Source of the DNA: a virus
Lineage: Duplodnaviria; Caudoviricetes
DNA length: 38,287 nt
IMG/VR virus record: IMGVR_UViG_3300025779_000009
Span: 1-38,287 of that record
Strand: one strand, 5' to 3'
In this document: piece by piece, positions 19,980 to 28,905 of the stretch
Position numbering within the stretch: the stretch's first letter is position 1
Layout of the letters: every line of letters begins with the position of its first letter
The notes under the pieces: generated by a model
What the model was told of the DNA's origin: nothing
What the model saw: only the letters and a program-made list of their open reading frames with translations
The model's database searches: none
Translations under genes and position numbers: made by a program

Positions 19980-20762
19980 CTACCACCACCTGAGCTGCTC
20001 GTTGCCCTTCTCCCTGAGGTCTCGGAGGAGGGCCATGAGCTTCACTGGCTCCATATTGGCCGGGCCTTGATTCATGCAGCCTGACGGATAGTGGCCACCG
20101 TGCCAGATCTCATTAGCCAGCGGCAGGTGCTCGTCGTAAATGTGTGCTGATACTGCCGTGTGATAAAGGGCCCCGGCCTCGGCCTCCACTGAATATTCTC
20201 GCAGAAGACCTGCCACGAGGTGCCCCACCATGCTGAAGTTGAAGACATCGTAGGGGAACCCCAGCCAGAAATCGTTGGACCTCATGAAGGCGTGGACATC
20301 CAGGACCCCACCACGCAGCTGGAACCACAAGGCCACCGTGCAAGGGATATCCTTGCTCGGCTGCGGGTTGGGGGTCCAGATGGTGAGCCCCGCCTGGCGG
20401 CTCATCGGATCCTTGACGAGGGTCTCTACCACGTAGTCGAGCTGGGCGGCAATGCGTGGCCCGTAGGCCCCGGCGAAGCTCTCACCGTCGTCGCTGAATT
20501 TTAGTAGTTGACTGTTGTAGGGCACAACGCCTTCCACCGAGTCATCCCCCGACAGGATCCAGTAGGCCTCAGCGGCCATGAACCGATAGTTGAGCTTCCG
20601 CTCCTGAATGGTCAGGACTGGACGGTGCATGTCCACGATCGACGTCAGGTGGGGCAACTCCGTGGTGCCCATACCCCGCGGGGCCACCCGTTGGCCGCGG
20701 TAGAGAAGCATGCCCAGGGCCCGAAGCCAAGCATCATTGGCCGATTGTGCAGTGAGATTCAC
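19980..20762 (-). CDS. Thymidylate synthase-family enzyme, predicted dCMP (hydroxy)methyltransferase
   Basis: AEAYWILSG, YGPR, catalytic DIPCT, MRSNDFWLGFPYD and HIY motifs. Asp replaces the dUMP-selecting Asn177 of E. coli ThyA. Confidence 0.82.
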   Translation of the reverse strand: MNLTAQSANDAWLRALGMLLYRGQRVAPRGMGTTELPHLTSIVDMHRPVLTIQERKLNYRFMAAEAYWILSGDDSVEGVVPYNSQLLKFSDDGESFAGAYGPRIAAQLDYVVETLVKDPMSRQAGLTIWTPNPQPSKDIPCTVALWFQLRGGVLDVHAFMRSNDFWLGFPYDVFNFSMVGHLVAGLLREYSVEAEAGALYHTAVSAHIYDEHLPLANEIWHGGHYPSGCMNQGPANMEPVKLMALLRDLREKGNEQLRWW

Positions 20763-21673
20763 AGGAGCTCCTTGATGACTTCAGTGAGGCGGTAGGGCTC
20801 ATTGGCGTGGAAGCGTTTCCAGAATTGAGGATGCTCGACCATGACATCGTCGAGACCCAACTGCTGGAGGGTCTGGTGGGCCTTCTGCCCCAGCGCAATG
20901 ACCCGCTGATGCGGCTGGAAGGTAGAATGCTTATTGAGTTGGTCGGCGTTGACCCACATCAGCTCCTGCTCGCTGATGTCGGCCTCCAAAAGCTGCTGCG
21001 TAACCCACTGGCTGCATCCGCCGTTGCTGAAGCTAGCGAAAGGCCACTGATAGTAGGCATCATTTGGTTTGTGCTGGGCGAATGATTCACCCACCAACAC
21101 GACCTTGGCCTCGAGGTTACCAGCGGACCTCACCAGGGCGGGGTGAAGTGGGGTCCTGAGCTGTGGCAGAAGGGTGGAGTGCTCCAATCGGACGTCCTGG
21201 TAGGTGTAGTTGTGGAGATAGACCGGCAGGTCCGTTAGCCCGTGCGCCGCGTAGCGTCGGTAGACAGCTCGTAGTTGGGCCTCGTCAGTGAGCATCTCAG
21301 CCGCCCGCCGCTTGTTGAAGTTAGCCACAGCCACCTCTTCACCAGGCAGACACATCACAACCACGGCCCCGCAGCGCATGGCGAGACGGTCTAGCATCCG
21401 GGCCGTGGGTCTCCCGAACCTGAGACTGCCCCCACGGAAGACCTCACCGTACGGTTGCTCAGACAGCCAGCAGCGGTCAAGAACAACGTCCTGGTAACCC
21501 AGGAGCGCGGGTAGCAGGGCCTCCACGTAGCAGCGGGCAAGACCTGGCCCGATGGCTGGCAAATTGCTGAAGTGGATGTAGGCCGCCCTTGTGTGGTGGG
21601 CAAACTCTCGAGCAGCAGTTGTTTTACCCCCGCCGTCCGGGCCCTCAAAGATTGTGACTGTCCTAGACGTCAT
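20759..21673 (-). CDS. dNMP (thymidylate-kinase-like) kinase fused to a C-terminal uracil-DNA glycosylase-superfamily-like domain
   Basis: P-loop IFEGPDGGGKTT and VVLDR..LSE..YG. The C-terminus has GNLEAKVVLVGE, VIALGQKA and EHP motifs. Start ATG at 21673 with GAGGGG RBS. Confidence 0.72.
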   Translation of the reverse strand: MTSRTVTIFEGPDGGGKTTAAREFAHHTRAAYIHFSNLPAIGPGLARCYVEALLPALLGYQDVVLDRCWLSEQPYGEVFRGGSLRFGRPTARMLDRLAMRCGAVVVMCLPGEEVAVANFNKRRAAEMLTDEAQLRAVYRRYAAHGLTDLPVYLHNYTYQDVRLEHSTLLPQLRTPLHPALVRSAGNLEAKVVLVGESFAQHKPNDAYYQWPFASFSNGGCSQWVTQQLLEADISEQELMWVNADQLNKHSTFQPHQRVIALGQKAHQTLQQLGLDDVMVEHPQFWKRFHANEPYRLTEVIKELL

Positions 21674-22169
21674 CACGGCACAGCCCCTCAAGTACTTGGT
21701 CGTGGGCATTGGTAAACAGGAGGCGGTTATACTGGTGCTCATACAAAATCATGAGGGTCATAGGTGGCACCCACCCCATGGGCTTGATCAGGTCGACCCT
21801 GTGTCCGCGCTTGCCGACCCCGGGGATCTTGTCCATGTTGGCTCCATGGACGTCGGACCAGAGCTCCTCCCAGGGCAGGCCCAGCATGATGGCGGTCCCC
21901 TTGGCAAAGTAGACGAGGTCAATCAGGGCATCGGCCTGGGCAGCGAGGTCTTGGAGCTCAACCCCCTCCCTGAACTCATCGAGCTCTTCCTGCATGCACT
22001 CCAACCGCTCGAATAGCTTCCGACGGGTGAGGTGGGCGGGAAAGGGTGGTCGAGTGAGGTGACCAAATCGCGCCAAGAACTGCTCGACGTCGAGGGTCTC
22101 CTGGTCGACGTAGGTGGGGCCACCTGGGTCCCTGAAGAACACGCTCTTAAACCACGACTTGAGACTCAT
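21663..22169 (-). CDS. All-alpha (MazG/PRA-PH-like) nucleoside triphosphate pyrophosphohydrolase
   Basis: EELDEF...ADALIDLVYF...VHGANMDK...KPMGW signature. ATGA overlap with the upstream gene. Confidence 0.8.
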   Translation of the reverse strand: MSLKSWFKSVFFRDPGGPTYVDQETLDVEQFLARFGHLTRPPFPAHLTRRKLFERLECMQEELDEFREGVELQDLAAQADALIDLVYFAKGTAIMLGLPWEELWSDVHGANMDKIPGVGKRGHRVDLIKPMGWVPPMTLMILYEHQYNRLLFTNAHDQVLEGLCRDDV

Positions 22170-22909
22170 TTGACCCTCCGGCAAACCCACAGGTTGTTGC
22201 GGGCCTGGTCAGGGAATAGTGGGCCGAAGATGTTCGAGATGGCGTCACTGTCGAAATACTCCTCGAGCATTGCCGCCACCTGGCCCACCGCCTTGTCCGG
22301 GTGCTTCTTGATGTGCTTGATGTCCATGAAGGTGCCGAACCGCCGCTCCACCACGAAGCCAGCCTTTTCAGCCGCCTTCTGAAGCTCGGGGACGGTGTAC
22401 TCGTGGATGTGGTTGGCAGCGTGGCGCTTCCCGTCGTAGCAGGGGGTCGACATCAGCATGACACCGCCGACCTTCAGGCTGTCGAAACAGGCCTTGAGCA
22501 GCTTGGCTCCGAGCTCCACACGCATGTGCTCGATGACCTCGTAGTGGACCACGACGTCGAACCTTTCAGGCTTGGCCTTGAGCAGCTCCTTGTAGCGCTC
22601 CACGAAGTTGAACTCGCCATGGAAGGTGAGTCGCTGGGACGCCGAGGGCTTCAGCTTGTTCAGGTCCACACCCACGTAGGTGTTGACGTGGGCCGCAGCC
22701 CCACCAGTCAGGATCTTGCTGAGGGGCCGGTCCTCACCGCAACCAATCTCGAGCACGTCGTGGTTGGGCTTGACGAAGCGACGGGCGAAGGACCAGCGAA
22801 AAAAGTGGGCGGAGTAGTCCCTGGCAAGGGTTCTACCATGTCCAGCCTCCCTGAGCTGTGTCTGATCATAGTCACGGTCATCACGGTGTTTCTCTTTACG
22901 CTGGACCAT
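22166..22909 (-). CDS. Class I SAM-dependent methyltransferase (UbiG-like, not a canonical DNA MTase)
   Basis: Motif I VLEIGCGE, YVGVDLN, FDVVVHYEVIEH and LKVGGVMLMSTP. No DPPY/NPPY or C5 motif-IV PC after motif I. AGGAGG RBS. Confidence 0.85.
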   Translation of the reverse strand: MVQRKEKHRDDRDYDQTQLREAGHGRTLARDYSAHFFRWSFARRFVKPNHDVLEIGCGEDRPLSKILTGGAAAHVNTYVGVDLNKLKPSASQRLTFHGEFNFVERYKELLKAKPERFDVVVHYEVIEHMRVELGAKLLKACFDSLKVGGVMLMSTPCYDGKRHAANHIHEYTVPELQKAAEKAGFVVERRFGTFMDIKHIKKHPDKAVGQVAAMLEEYFDSDAISNIFGPLFPDQARNNLWVCRRVK

Positions 22910-23371
22910 CTAGTCCTCCTGGGTGGGGTGTGTTCTGAGCGGTGTGAACAGAGCCCGGTCGATGGGCCAGTCACATTTGATTCGTTGTTGGAACTGATTG
23001 CTAGGCACTACGCACCTGGGATCTGCACCCCATTCTGCAGAGCACTTAGTCTCATCTTGAAAAGTCAGAAGAAGATTGTTGGATTTGTTCCAGCAGTTTA
23101 CCTGTCGCGAAACAAACCGACAATTCGTCGGGCTGTAACCCTTGGTGTTGTCGATGCGATCGATGTCAAGGCCATACTTATAGCCATTGATAATTGCCCA
23201 CTTCACAAAGTTAACACTACCGGAGCGCCCTGACCACTCTGAGCAGAGTGTGATGCCCTTCGCCCCGTAGTCCTTCCAAGATCTGTGCTTGGGCGAATTA
23301 CAACGGCCGTGGATCCCAGCCCAAACTGCTTGGAGCTTGAAGATGAGGTCCACGACCGCGTCGGAGGTCAT
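22910..23371 (-). CDS. HNH-type homing endonuclease-like protein
   Basis: RCNSP....KDYGAKGITLCSEW...LDIDRIDNTKGYSPTNCRF...NCWN. Visibly more AT-rich than its neighbours. Confidence 0.75.
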   Translation of the reverse strand: MTSDAVVDLIFKLQAVWAGIHGRCNSPKHRSWKDYGAKGITLCSEWSGRSGSVNFVKWAIINGYKYGLDIDRIDNTKGYSPTNCRFVSRQVNCWNKSNNLLLTFQDETKCSAEWGADPRCVVPSNQFQQRIKCDWPIDRALFTPLRTHPTQED

Positions 23372-26062: not shown

Positions 26063-26776
26063 TTAGAACTTGCACCTTCCGCCCTTGCTCTTAGCGTGCG
26101 GGCACCAGCGACAGTAATCTCCAGGCCGTGGAGCAAAGAAGCGGTCCCCCATCATGGGCATCACCTTGGCGGCCCACTCCTTCTTCAGGGCCTCCACATC
26201 CTTGCGGAAGTAGACGAGCTTGACGAGTTCACCCTGGTCAAGGTACCAGAACTCCGCCTCGACCTCGTCGATTAGGGGGTACTTGCTGAAGGCCGCCAGG
26301 GCGTAGAGGCTCAACTGCTCCCTGGACTCCTCGCGCACCTTCCCGGTCTTGTAGTCCACGATCTTCAGCATGCTGCAGGACCCCGGCCCGATGTCCTTCC
26401 GCGTCTTGGTGTGAGGCGCCTTGTCAGTGATGTAATAGGCGTCGACGACGACCCGGACCCAGCAGTCCTTGCTGAACCATTCCACGGGTCTCCACTGACT
26501 ATCAAAGGCCCACTGTGCCTCGGTTTTCACCTCCTGCTTGAGCAGATGGGTGAACTCCTTTTTGAAGAGCTTCAGCCGGTCAGGCAGCACCTTCAACTTC
26601 TTGGTGACAAACTCCTCAGCCTGGGTGTGAGCCTCATGGCCACCCACTAGAGCAGGACCTTCCGGCTCAGCCACCTTGTCGAGGTAGACGAGCTTGGCAC
26701 GGAAGGGGCACTTACGGTAGTTGTTGAGGCGGGAGAAGCTCCAGGCCACAAACTTCTTGATGGGCTTAGTCGGCAC
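26063..26776 (-). CDS. Cas4/RecB-like PD-(D/E)XK exonuclease
   Basis: WSFSRL...KCP, VVD...IVDYKTGK, QLSLYA and CRWC......C (split 4-Cys cluster). Confidence 0.85.
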   Translation of the reverse strand: MPTKPIKKFVAWSFSRLNNYRKCPFRAKLVYLDKVAEPEGPALVGGHEAHTQAEEFVTKKLKVLPDRLKLFKKEFTHLLKQEVKTEAQWAFDSQWRPVEWFSKDCWVRVVVDAYYITDKAPHTKTRKDIGPGSCSMLKIVDYKTGKVREESREQLSLYALAAFSKYPLIDEVEAEFWYLDQGELVKLVYFRKDVEALKKEWAAKVMPMMGDRFFAPRPGDYCRWCPHAKSKGGRCKF

Positions 26777-28715
26777 GCCGACCTCCTTTGTCGTAGGTCT
26801 TCAGGGTCGACCAGTTGGTCGGGGTGGTCTTGCCCTCAGAGAGCATAGGGACACCAAACTTGATGCCGTCCATCGCCTCCTGGAGGAGCCGCATGCCGAA
26901 GTCAACCTCGTCCTTGGGGCACATGACCAGGAGCTCATCATGGACCGTGAGGAGCAGCTGGTGGCTGGCAGGCTTAGCGGCCCAGTAGCGGATGACGGCC
27001 TCCTTGGTGCAGTCAGCGGCTGACCCCTGGATGAGGACGTTCAGCATCTTGTAGTCGAAGTGGCGGAGCTGGCCGTCGATGACCTTGGGTGGCTCGCAGT
27101 AATAGACCCGTCCACCCCACGTCCGGATGGGCTCGTCGGCCTTGGCCCGCCGTTTCATCTCGCCGTACATGTCCCGAAGCCCGGGGAAGATGGCCAAATA
27201 GGCGTCCTTTACCCGCTTCGCCTCATCCACCGTGATGTCGGACTTCAGGGCGAGTTTCCCAATCCCCATGCCGTAGATCAGACCGAAACCTGTGTTCTTG
27301 ACCGGCTTTCTGGCCTCGTCGTGGGTCTGGCCGGGGAAGAGGCCATAGTCGGCCTGCAGCATGGTGGTGGCGAAATCATGCACGTCCAACCAGGGATTCT
27401 CCTCGTAGGCTTCCCTGAGAACCCCATCCTCAAAGTGGCCGAGGATCCGTAGCTCCTGCTGGCTGTAGTCGCGGTCAAGCAGCACCATACCTGGGCGTGC
27501 GGCCACGTAGGACCTGACCTGAGGGAGCGGCTGGAGGTCGAGGGGTGCCACCGGGAGCAGCTTGGCCTTCGTTGGGTTGAGCTCCTCGTGACGGAAGATC
27601 GGCTTGAACTCCTTGGGGATGTTCTGGAAGTTGGGGGTCGACGACAGCCGACCTGTCCGGGTCCCCACCGAGCCACCAGAGTCAGTGGCACGGGTCTGGT
27701 TCCACTGGGTGTAGATGACCCCGCCGGATTGCTGAGCGGTCTTCAACCAGGGCATCATGAAGGTCTTGAGGCAGGTGCCGAGTTGGGTCCGGTGCTTCAG
27801 CATGCCCAACAACACCCGGTCGGTGACGGCGATGTCCAAGCTATCCTTGTCCGTTTTCCACTGGCCCTTGGGGGTCTTGCCCAGCATGACTGGGTCGACC
27901 TTCTTGCTGTTGACCAGGGCCTCCACGAGCTGGTCCCCGCTGTCCAGGTTGAACCCAGGGTCCTTGATCTTGAGCCGCCTGAGGATCCACTCAGTCAGAA
28001 CGTCGCGTTGGCGGTTGTAATTCTCCACGTCCTGCGCCAGGCGCTCAAGGTCGACCGGTACCCCGTCCCGTTCCATCTGCAGGAGGATGGGGAGCATCTG
28101 ACGCTCGCGATCATAGGCCTCTGCCATACCAGCGTCGAGCACCCGCTTGTGGAGCAGCTTGAAGAGCTTCTCGGTCCGCTCGGTGTCGCCATTCGCATAG
28201 GTGCCGACGAGATCACCTGGGGCGTAGGCGATGTAGGCGCCTGATGGGTGCTCGGATTTGTAGGATCTGCTGATCTTGATACCAGTCACCGGTTGATTCG
28301 CTACGAGCCAGTCGGCCACGGCGTCCTGCTCGTCAGGCGGGAGGTTGAGGAGCCGCTCGGCCGCTGGTTTCAGGGCCTGGGCCTCGTGAGGCTCATTCAA
28401 AAACAGCAGGAAGAGGGTGTCATGAATCCGGTCCCACGGCAGCATGGGCAGGCCCAGGTGGGTCTCAGCAACATCGAGGTCGAACTTGGCGTTGTGGAAC
28501 AGGACCCCATCGGGGTGTTCCCACACCTCACGTAGGGCGGCGATGGCGTCGTCGACCCCGCAGTTGTTCTTGGTGGGATGGCCCCAGGCGTAGTAGCGGG
28601 CCTTCTGGCCGAAGGTCTTGATGCTCACCCCGACCGGCACTGGCGGGTAGACCGGGCGACCCTCGATCTTGAACGACTCGAAGTCCACCGTGGGTGGCTT
28701 GGGCACCTTAGCCAT
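26766..28715 (-). CDS. DNA polymerase family A with 3'-5' exonuclease
   Basis: Exonuclease motifs VDFES, FHNAKFD and YANGD. TGRLSS, motif A DYSQQELR, motif B RKPVKNTGFGLIYG and motif C VHDEL. Confidence 0.95.
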   Translation of the reverse strand: MAKVPKPPTVDFESFKIEGRPVYPPVPVGVSIKTFGQKARYYAWGHPTKNNCGVDDAIAALREVWEHPDGVLFHNAKFDLDVAETHLGLPMLPWDRIHDTLFLLFLNEPHEAQALKPAAERLLNLPPDEQDAVADWLVANQPVTGIKISRSYKSEHPSGAYIAYAPGDLVGTYANGDTERTEKLFKLLHKRVLDAGMAEAYDRERQMLPILLQMERDGVPVDLERLAQDVENYNRQRDVLTEWILRRLKIKDPGFNLDSGDQLVEALVNSKKVDPVMLGKTPKGQWKTDKDSLDIAVTDRVLLGMLKHRTQLGTCLKTFMMPWLKTAQQSGGVIYTQWNQTRATDSGGSVGTRTGRLSSTPNFQNIPKEFKPIFRHEELNPTKAKLLPVAPLDLQPLPQVRSYVAARPGMVLLDRDYSQQELRILGHFEDGVLREAYEENPWLDVHDFATTMLQADYGLFPGQTHDEARKPVKNTGFGLIYGMGIGKLALKSDITVDEAKRVKDAYLAIFPGLRDMYGEMKRRAKADEPIRTWGGRVYYCEPPKVIDGQLRHFDYKMLNVLIQGSAADCTKEAVIRYWAAKPASHQLLLTVHDELLVMCPKDEVDFGMRLLQEAMDGIKFGVPMLSEGKTTPTNWSTLKTYDKGGRRAD

Positions 28716-28905
28716 TGAGGGCCCCACGCTCACGATCCGCCCGGAGCTTGTTGATACGGCTGTAGATCCGGTTGAGGAATGTCACCCGCTTCTCACCGGC
28801 TTGCTCCATGGCGAGCAGCAGCCGGGCGAGCTTCTCGTCCCCATTCATCAGGGCGTCATTCAAACTGGCCCAGTTCCTCAGCATGTTTTGGGTTGCTACT
28901 TTCAT
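28708..28905 (-). CDS. Hypothetical protein
   Basis: AAGGAGG RBS, 65 aa helical ORF overlapping the polymerase start. Confidence 0.7.
   Translation of the reverse strand: MKVATQNMLRNWASLNDALMNGDEKLARLLLAMEQAGEKRVTFLNRIYSRINKLRADRERGALNG

Follow-up and report, generated by a model that had tools for sequence, protein, structure and literature searches.

A minimal UDG-superfamily domain fused to a phage nucleotide kinase: a possible glycosylase for deaminated modified cytosine

Phages that replace all of their cytosine with 5-hydroxymethylcytosine (5hmC) or 5-methylcytosine (5mC) face lesions in which 5-hydroxymethyluracil (5hmU) or thymine stands opposite guanine (5hmU:G or T:G). To our knowledge, T:G is not removed by the family-1 uracil-DNA glycosylase (UDG) Ung. 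Family-1 Ung does not remove 5hmU either, and in the Escherichia coli enzyme Tyr66 excludes this base (PMC5449639). In this study, we analyzed a virus record of 38,287 bases (IMG/VR record IMGVR_UViG_3300025779_000009, 97% complete according to CheckV), which as a whole is called the window below. On its minus strand, a gene next to a thymidylate-synthase homologue encodes a nucleotide kinase fused to a C-terminal domain, for which a preliminary description had proposed a UDG-like fold and a role in repair or reading of deaminated modified cytosine.

The closest structures are those of family-4 UDGs such as Thermus thermophilus (Tth) UDGa (1ui0) and Thermotoga maritima TM0511 (1l9g/1vk2). The pocket of Tth UDGa consists of E41, G42, E47, F54, N80 and H155; N80 pairs with uracil N3-H/O4, E47 blocks thymine, and the His supplies most of the catalytic power, as H155S causes an activity loss of more than 3 orders of magnitude, while N89A leads only to an approximately 6-fold loss and substitution of Gly42 lowers activity at least 100-fold (PMC5387724). 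Motif A of family 4 is GE(A/G)PG, family-5 enzymes bear GLAPA and HPSPLN (PMC5449639), and in UdgX R184 contacts the DNA backbone (PMC10359453). UDG folds were also described in other phages with modified pyrimidines, namely as PolA-fused domains of SPO1-like and SP15-like phages (phiLo, 9qhs; YerA41), which keep the catalytic Glu and His, are located N-terminal to the polymerase in T-modified genomes and excise deoxyuridine (dU) (PMC13697223), whereas the window domain is C-terminal to a kinase and belongs to a C-modifying cassette. The same kinase-UDG architecture beside a synthase with Asp at ThyA position 177 (Asp177) is found in gp315 of Bacillus phage G and gp29 of Stenotrophomonas phage AXL3, both uncharacterised and annotated as 'thymidylate kinase'; AXL3 gp29 is 45% identical to the window fusion over the full length. 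Phage G and AXL3 genomes carry a deoxycytidine monophosphate (dCMP) deaminase, whereas the window has none.

Fold and pocket of the C-terminal domain

The domain comprises residues 173-304 (132 aa; 20762..21157, minus strand). The location assigned to it previously, 20759..21128, was right, but the real span of about 21157..20762 is roughly 10 residues longer at the N-terminal end, and the earlier interval is not a whole number of codons. The motifs named there, GNLEAKVVLVGESF (G185 at 21121), VIALGQKA (from 20902) and VEHPQFW (H281 at 20833), are indeed present in the longest open reading frame of the fusion gene (20759..21742, minus strand). Its probable start is the ATG at 21673, from which residues are numbered here; the resulting protein of 304 aa has the length of the identical database protein P0001, and the other 57 homologue matches (297-325 aa) fit this start.

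Pfam and PHROG scans gave no match for the C-terminal domain of the window protein; among 56 close relatives, Pfam UDG matched no more than 5, at E 0.003 at best. AlphaFold2 models reached a predicted local distance difference test score (pLDDT) of 96 for the whole fusion protein and 88 for the isolated domain. In a comparison of the domain model with 48,161 solved chains, the best 16 all belonged to the UDG superfamily, with the first unrelated chain at Z 5.3. The top match was 1l9g (Z 10.1; root mean square deviation 3.3 Å over 124 residues), followed by family-5 UDGb (2d3y, Z 9.5) and UdgX (6ail, Z 9.4), both equal to family 4 to within 1 Z unit, and by phiLo PolA (Z 8.4). Foldseek matched the domain to 1vk2 (E 3.4e-4), and 27 of the 28 PDB matches of a 42-sequence domain profile were family-4 or UdgX sequences, each of them weak singly (best E 0.034). 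As a lead only, ESM Atlas returned viral clusters of 119-127-aa proteins (scores 0.89-0.90), in the top three of which 19-36% of the members bear Pfam UDG. The UDG-like fold is thereby borne out at the level of models, which give the domain the alpha/beta/alpha fold of the superfamily and thus place it there.

Residue conservation was counted in the best 150 of 1,542 representatives (clusters at 50% identity, 777 of them at E <=1e-10), to which all counts out of 150 refer. The pocket residues E/D196 (144), F212 (147), N242 (149) and H281 (148) as well as R287 (145) are kept nearly throughout. E196 corresponds to E41 of family 4, and F212, N242 and H281 are the equivalents of Phe54, Asn80 and His155, where the register of Phe and Asn was taken from the 42-sequence profile match and that of His from the HP motif. 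In the sequence HPQFWKR, R287 matches the DNA-binding Arg of family-4 motif B, which is equivalent to UdgX R184.

In other respects the domain departs from family 4. It is about 60 residues shorter and fused to a kinase. Motif A is altered, as described before, to GESFA; the position after Glu is variable and Pro is replaced by Phe in 97/150. Also in line with the earlier description, a set of cysteines for an iron-sulfur (Fe-S) cluster is missing, since the only Cys is C220 and the VKC segment that follows the Asn has been lost together with the motif-3 loop bearing Asn89; the segment from WVNAD to VIALG has approximately 13 residues, compared with approximately 40 in phage G gp315. The Glu47 region is remodelled, with a 3-residue insertion that leaves the register of this residue ambiguous (K202 or D205), and no helix is predicted there, residues 196-220 being coil. 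Lacking motif A, the cysteines of the 4Fe-4S cluster and the motif-3 loop, the domain is not a family-4 member. GESFA and HPQFWK in place of GLAPA and HPSPLN separate it from family-5 UDGb, and deletion of the KRRIH R-loop region from UdgX; the Fe-S cluster of both is absent. By its modelled anatomy, the domain would work like a family-4/5 UDG, yet it is a member neither of family 4 nor of family 5 or UdgX. Since gp315 retains the motif-3 segment and passes the Pfam UDG cut-off (E 1.5e-12), the fuller domain of phage G points to a graded series from family-4-like to minimal forms.

The N-terminal half (residues 1-170; 21164..21673, minus strand) is a P-loop nucleoside monophosphate (NMP) kinase domain with the motif GPDGGGKT, which resembles YorR and thymidylate kinase (phrog_761, E 1e-13; YorR 2axp, E 4e-9, Z 13.3). 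An NMP-kinase fold fits, and P-loop and DR motif are kept, with G11, D13, G16, K17, D66 and R67 invariant in 56 sequences. The domain is a predicted kinase of 5-hydroxymethyl-dCMP (5hm-dCMP).

Synthase neighbour and distribution of the domain

The stop codon of the fusion gene overlaps by 4 nt the GTG start of the synthase gene (19980..20762, minus strand). Its product is a thymidylate-synthase homologue with KDIPC (Asp143), Asp169 and Asp177. Asp at ThyA position 177 is a mark of dCMP use (PMC8670742), residue 143 correlates with a hydroxymethyl or methyl product, with Asp143 standing for hydroxymethylation, and D169N marks hydroxylases (PMC13326640). For a 27-sequence profile led by the window synthase, the best PDB match was the CMP hydroxymethylase MilA (E 4e-32, next match 1e-22), so that signature residues and profile match both predict a dCMP hydroxymethylase. 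An identity as 5-hydroxy-dCMP synthase was rejected, as Asp169 is kept. AXL3, a cultured relative, shares this cassette and has a deaminase in addition. Of 37 restriction enzymes tried on AXL3 DNA, the 2 that cut it have A/T-only sites, and the 35 that it resisted all have G/C in their sites (PMC7504290). Modified cytosine is likewise predicted in the DNA of the window phage.

A scan of viral contigs yielded at least 76 distinct loci from 304 relatives. The synthase lies downstream of the fusion or kinase gene in 76/76 listed loci and abuts it in 74. Asp143, Asp169 and Asp177 occur in the window synthase and in 73/76 of these loci; two have Leu143 and one is cut off. Of the listed loci, 2 do not differ from the window, 37 others fall into its clade, 27 form a second clade with His replaced by Pro and Arg by Gln, 4 have a degenerate domain, and 6 have the kinase only. 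Within the window's clade, the His is kept in 35 and the Arg in 36 of the 37 loci. The second clade (L040-L043, L045, L047, L054, L056, L057, L059-L076) has a cassette without deaminase or methyltransferase, and upstream a conserved 298-aa gene, glycosyltransferase-like by eye but without a Pfam match.

Fusion to a nucleotide kinase is the rule among the best 150 representatives (109 full-length and 23 partial). In 7 representatives, an intact domain follows an N-terminal part that has neither a P-loop nor a kinase-profile match, and in Ralstonia phage RsoM2USA the domain is a 152-aa stand-alone gene in a genome with a distant KDVPC/Asp177 synthase. As the domain stays intact where the kinase part has decayed and where it is encoded by itself, it is under selection of its own. 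When shorter, stand-alone homologues close to it were searched for, a single match was obtained, probably a fragment, and locus searches with the stand-alone or kinase-decayed proteins found no contigs, so that gene context is known for RsoM2USA alone.

The co-occurrence with Asp-type synthases that had been expected holds in 75/75 readable listed loci and extends to the stand-alone copy of RsoM2USA. Asp synthases are, however, also present in cassettes with the kinase alone and in those without a kinase, so that the link is not peculiar to the domain. This was further seen in a reverse survey that started from the synthase and took in the best 80 of its 597 relatives, all with Asp177 and many on the same contigs as the 76 listed loci. 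Here, 41 loci have kinase and domain, and in 15 a kinase is present but the domain is absent or degenerate; the kinase slot is taken by a DUF1599-like protein in 18 and by a DUF6378 protein in 5, and one locus is cut off. On the synthase tree, these states interchange between closely related members. No UDG domain or phrog_761 kinase was found elsewhere in the 23 records with a DUF1599-like or DUF6378 protein (12 of them at least 90% complete), with positive controls matched in the same search. Since an Asp177 synthase always accompanies the domain and the domain does not always accompany the synthase, it is the domain that needs the Asp177 synthase and not the converse.

Possible function in repair of deaminated modified cytosine

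We tentatively favour the view that the domain is a small monofunctional DNA glycosylase for deaminated modified cytosine, i.e. 5hmU or a derivative opposite G and probably also U, as its modelled fold and its pocket and cassette sequences suggest. In such a pathway, the MazG-like enzyme of the cassette would convert dCTP to dCMP, the synthase would convert dCMP to 5hm-dCMP, the kinase domain would phosphorylate the latter, PolA would incorporate the product, and the methyltransferase may decorate the incorporated base further. At a lesion, Arg287 would grip the DNA, Phe212 would stack on the flipped base, Asn242 would read its N3/O4 edge and His281 would stabilise the leaving base, after which host enzymes would complete base-excision repair. 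The remodelled loop 197-210, in family 4 the site of the thymine-blocking Glu47 helix, would admit the 5-substituent. Because of the hydroxymethylase signature of the synthase, 5hmU:G and not T:G is the likely lesion; T:G, which had been considered as well, is unlikely in the window phage, as its synthase has Asp143 and matches MilA best. Since the window has no dCMP deaminase, the main source would be lesions in DNA and not an enzymatic flux of deoxyuridine triphosphate (dUTP). The fusion probably reflects co-inheritance and co-expression with the modification cassette rather than a shared active site.

Several observations weigh against a lesion glycosylase. The 27 loci of the second clade retain the domain, including Phe and Asn, in spite of the changes of His to Pro and Arg to Gln, and a recognisable intact domain is missing from 38/80 of the synthase-selected loci. 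For two copies of the domain, T:G would be the expected lesion, as the synthases beside them have Leu143 and are of methylase type. The residue at the Gly42 position varies (R/S/K/A/E/G), and the deletion in motif 3 removes the water-positioning Asn and its DNA-contact loop. Furthermore, loop 203-222 has a pLDDT of 67-68 in the isolated domain and of 93-94 in the whole protein, values from different alignments, which hints in these models that the loop leans on the kinase.

If the domain repairs deaminated cytosine, lineages without it should drift to A/T. This was tested with 33 loci with an intact domain and 39 loci lacking it, arranged in 17 branch-disjoint pairs, with 8 intermediate loci left out. 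GC content at third codon positions (GC3) of cassette genes was higher with an intact domain in 15/17 pairs (sign test, p 0.002) and in 10 of 12 hand-picked pairs. Against this stand transversions as biased as transitions (421:149 vs 1367:595) and flanking DNA that agrees in 11/17 pairs only (p 0.33; Wilcoxon p 0.02). In addition, 3 of 6 polarised whole-genome comparisons are without excess, the other 3 being non-independent as they share two related non-carriers, and carriers (n = 6) and non-carriers (n = 7) have practically the same mean genome GC (0.580 and 0.579). Most pairs lose the kinase too, and both this loss and differences between hosts are confounded; of 6 pairs keeping a kinase, 5 go in the same direction, two of them by <=0.02. 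Pool effects or host GC could cause the GC3 signal, and the outcome is mixed and counted as weak support for an antimutator role.

Among the alternatives, a nucleotide-level module survives best, although we consider it unlikely. Its pocket would bind free 5hm-dUMP or dUMP and hydrolyse the N-glycosidic bond or regulate the fused kinase, keeping such nucleotides from DNA; human DNPH1 is a precedent for N-glycosidic hydrolysis of such a nucleotide. The prevalence of the kinase fusion, the loss of a part of the DNA-contact surface with motif 3 and, in the models, the better order of the pocket loop in presence of the kinase are consistent with this, as is the deaminase that follows the synthase in 42/76 listed loci, since enzymes of this kind introduce 5hmdU into DNA in vivo (bioRxiv 2024.12.05.627091). 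On the other hand, the DNA-backbone Arg is kept in 145/150, the domain is also found where no working kinase remains and as a gene by itself, and a cassette deaminase is found neither in the window nor in the 27 loci of the second clade.

It is improbable that the domain is a uracil-only glycosylase which removes dU arising from raised dUTP and is linked to modified cytosine only indirectly. By structure and by sequence, its nearest matches are family-4 enzymes specific for uracil, and the PolA-fused domains of phiLo and YerA41 set an example (PMC13697223). Asp205 (111/150) could moreover replace the thymine-blocking Glu47, but the helix of the latter is not predicted in the coil of residues 196-220. 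Most hosts have Ung, and a lesion beyond the reach of the host therefore accounts better for a phage copy tied to the Asp177 synthase.

The chance that the domain is a non-catalytic lesion reader or scaffold, which binds flipped pyrimidines or docks the kinase on synthase or polymerase, appears small. N4-like PolA-fused UDG domains are described as lacking catalytic residues (PMC13697223), and the gene abuts the synthase in nearly all listed loci. The proposal that the domain could be non-catalytic is plausible for the second clade, which keeps Phe and Asn without His or Arg, but unlikely for the window's clade, where both are near-invariant and a pure scaffold would not need them. A discriminator that attacks unmodified-cytosine (host) DNA or reads modified cytosine itself is the weakest of the earlier options and very improbable despite the strict link to cytosine-modifying cassettes and the remodelled loop on the C5 side of the pocket, as Asn242 with its uracil-pairing counterpart N80 is kept in 149/150 and a cytosine edge would call for Asp there, as in the UNG Asn-to-Asp cytosine glycosylase mutant.

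For the favoured glycosylase for deaminated modified cytosine, a parallel is offered by Xanthomonas phage Xp12, the cytosine of which is fully 5mC (bioRxiv 2024.12.05.627091). Its cassette (gp58-gp61) has the order gp61, gp60 (MazG plus DUF1599-like; L216:6542-7315), synthase, deaminase and dihydrofolate reductase. For the product of gp61 (L216:6067-6549), which is annotated as hypothetical, matches were obtained to the glycosylase domain of MBD4 (E 5e-14) and, above the cut-off, to Pfam HhH-GPD. MBD4 acts on T:G and 5hmU:G, and by this sequence match gp61 is a candidate glycosylase for T:G mismatches, encoded by a phage whose cytosine is all 5mC. A known modified-cytosine cassette hence carries a candidate deamination-repair glycosylase of another fold. 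Like the window, Xp12 combines MazG, an Asp177 synthase and a candidate glycosylase for base excision in a single cassette; it differs by the MBD4-like HhH fold of this glycosylase, by the lack of a P-loop NMP kinase match and by a synthase that makes 5-methyl-dCMP. The parallel is an analogy from one genome. An HhH-GPD glycosylase as a general substitute in UDG-less relatives was rejected, as 0/34 records other than Xp12 match. It is possible, though more doubtful than the glycosylase function itself, that the domain represents a new minimal Fe-S-free UDG family dedicated to 5hmU (or 5-alkoxymethyluracil) and that C-replacing phages carry their own deaminated-base repair, a mini-UDG with 5hmC and an MBD4-like enzyme with 5mC in Xp12. 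A description of the fusion was not found in the literature searched (main texts), so that 'undescribed' is provisional.

Neighbouring genes, related cassettes and implications

The plus strand of the window carries head genes of P22-like type, and its minus strand a replication operon, which encodes primase, PolA, exonuclease, SNF2 helicase, HNH endonuclease, S-adenosylmethionine (SAM)-dependent methyltransferase, MazG-like enzyme, fusion protein and thymidylate-synthase homologue. The family A DNA polymerase (26766..28733, minus strand; assigned by Pfam, no UDG domain reported) has 655 aa with exonuclease and polymerase domains only and lacks the N-terminal UDG domain of the PolA-fused phage UDGs. 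The MazG/PRA-PH-like pyrophosphatase (21663..22190, minus strand; PF01503, E 2e-11) is a predicted dCTPase.

The variable modifier slot of the cassette is occupied in the window by a class I SAM-dependent methyltransferase (22166..22909, minus strand; PF13489, E 5e-13), which is present in 36/76 listed related loci and gave only weak matches to small-molecule O/N-methyltransferases. It is often 60-80% identical among relatives, above the level of neighbouring genes; in other relatives the slot holds a C5-methylase-like protein, a pair of pyridoxal phosphate enzymes or the 298-aa protein without Pfam match. Together with the predicted 5hmC cassette, the methyltransferase sequence suggests an undescribed methylated 5hmC derivative; a literature search on methoxymethyl-cytosine in phages found no paper. 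The HNH endonuclease gene (22910-23371, minus strand) sits between a conserved 245-aa gene and the methyltransferase gene and is absent from most relatives.

In phage G, gp313-gp319 (L080:2293-8029) bring together alpha-glucosyltransferase, kinase-UDG fusion, deaminase and KDVPC/Asp177 synthase. Glucosylated 5hmC is predicted from this gene set, and the available text of PMC13216743 and PMC6024577 reports no DNA chemistry for this phage. Other fusions in related cassettes are a kinase-synthase beside a T4 beta-glucosyltransferase homologue (L171:6992-9378) and a MazG-kinase (L157:3965-5014). In two kinase-less cassettes, histone-deacetylase-family proteins directly follow the deaminase (L121:6825-7757 and L127:6297-7172; Pfam E 1e-21 and 7e-26).

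The DUF1599/Nmad1-like protein of about 125 aa (L090:4588-4983 and 17 other loci) was matched by Pfam at E 0.04 only and in the ESM Atlas at 0.92. Like it, the DUF6378 protein (L138:4712-5011 and 4 others) lies between MazG and Asp177 synthase in the slot of the kinase. Kinase and DUF1599-like or DUF6378 protein are mutually exclusive, both being present in 0/80 loci of the reverse survey, and neither Xp12 nor the genomes with DUF1599-like or DUF6378 proteins gave a phrog_761 kinase match. Infection by Xp12 induces 5-methyl-dCMP kinase activity, which makes the small all-helical DUF1599-like protein a candidate non-P-loop route to modified dCTP; the plain alternative is reliance on the host kinase.

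To the kinase-UDG fusion itself, this study adds a clade without the His, domains that stand alone or follow a decayed kinase, the exchange of kinase and DUF1599-like protein, and the MBD4-like gene of Xp12. As cultured carriers of the domain exist (AXL3, PW916, phage G and RsoM2USA), the question of its function is open to direct test. If the proposed function is true, the domain would be a candidate for a compact reagent with which to map 5hmU or deaminated 5hmC, and a widespread UDG variant of about 130 residues, with 777 clusters at the identity and E-value limits given above, would answer how genomes in which all cytosine is replaced stay stable.

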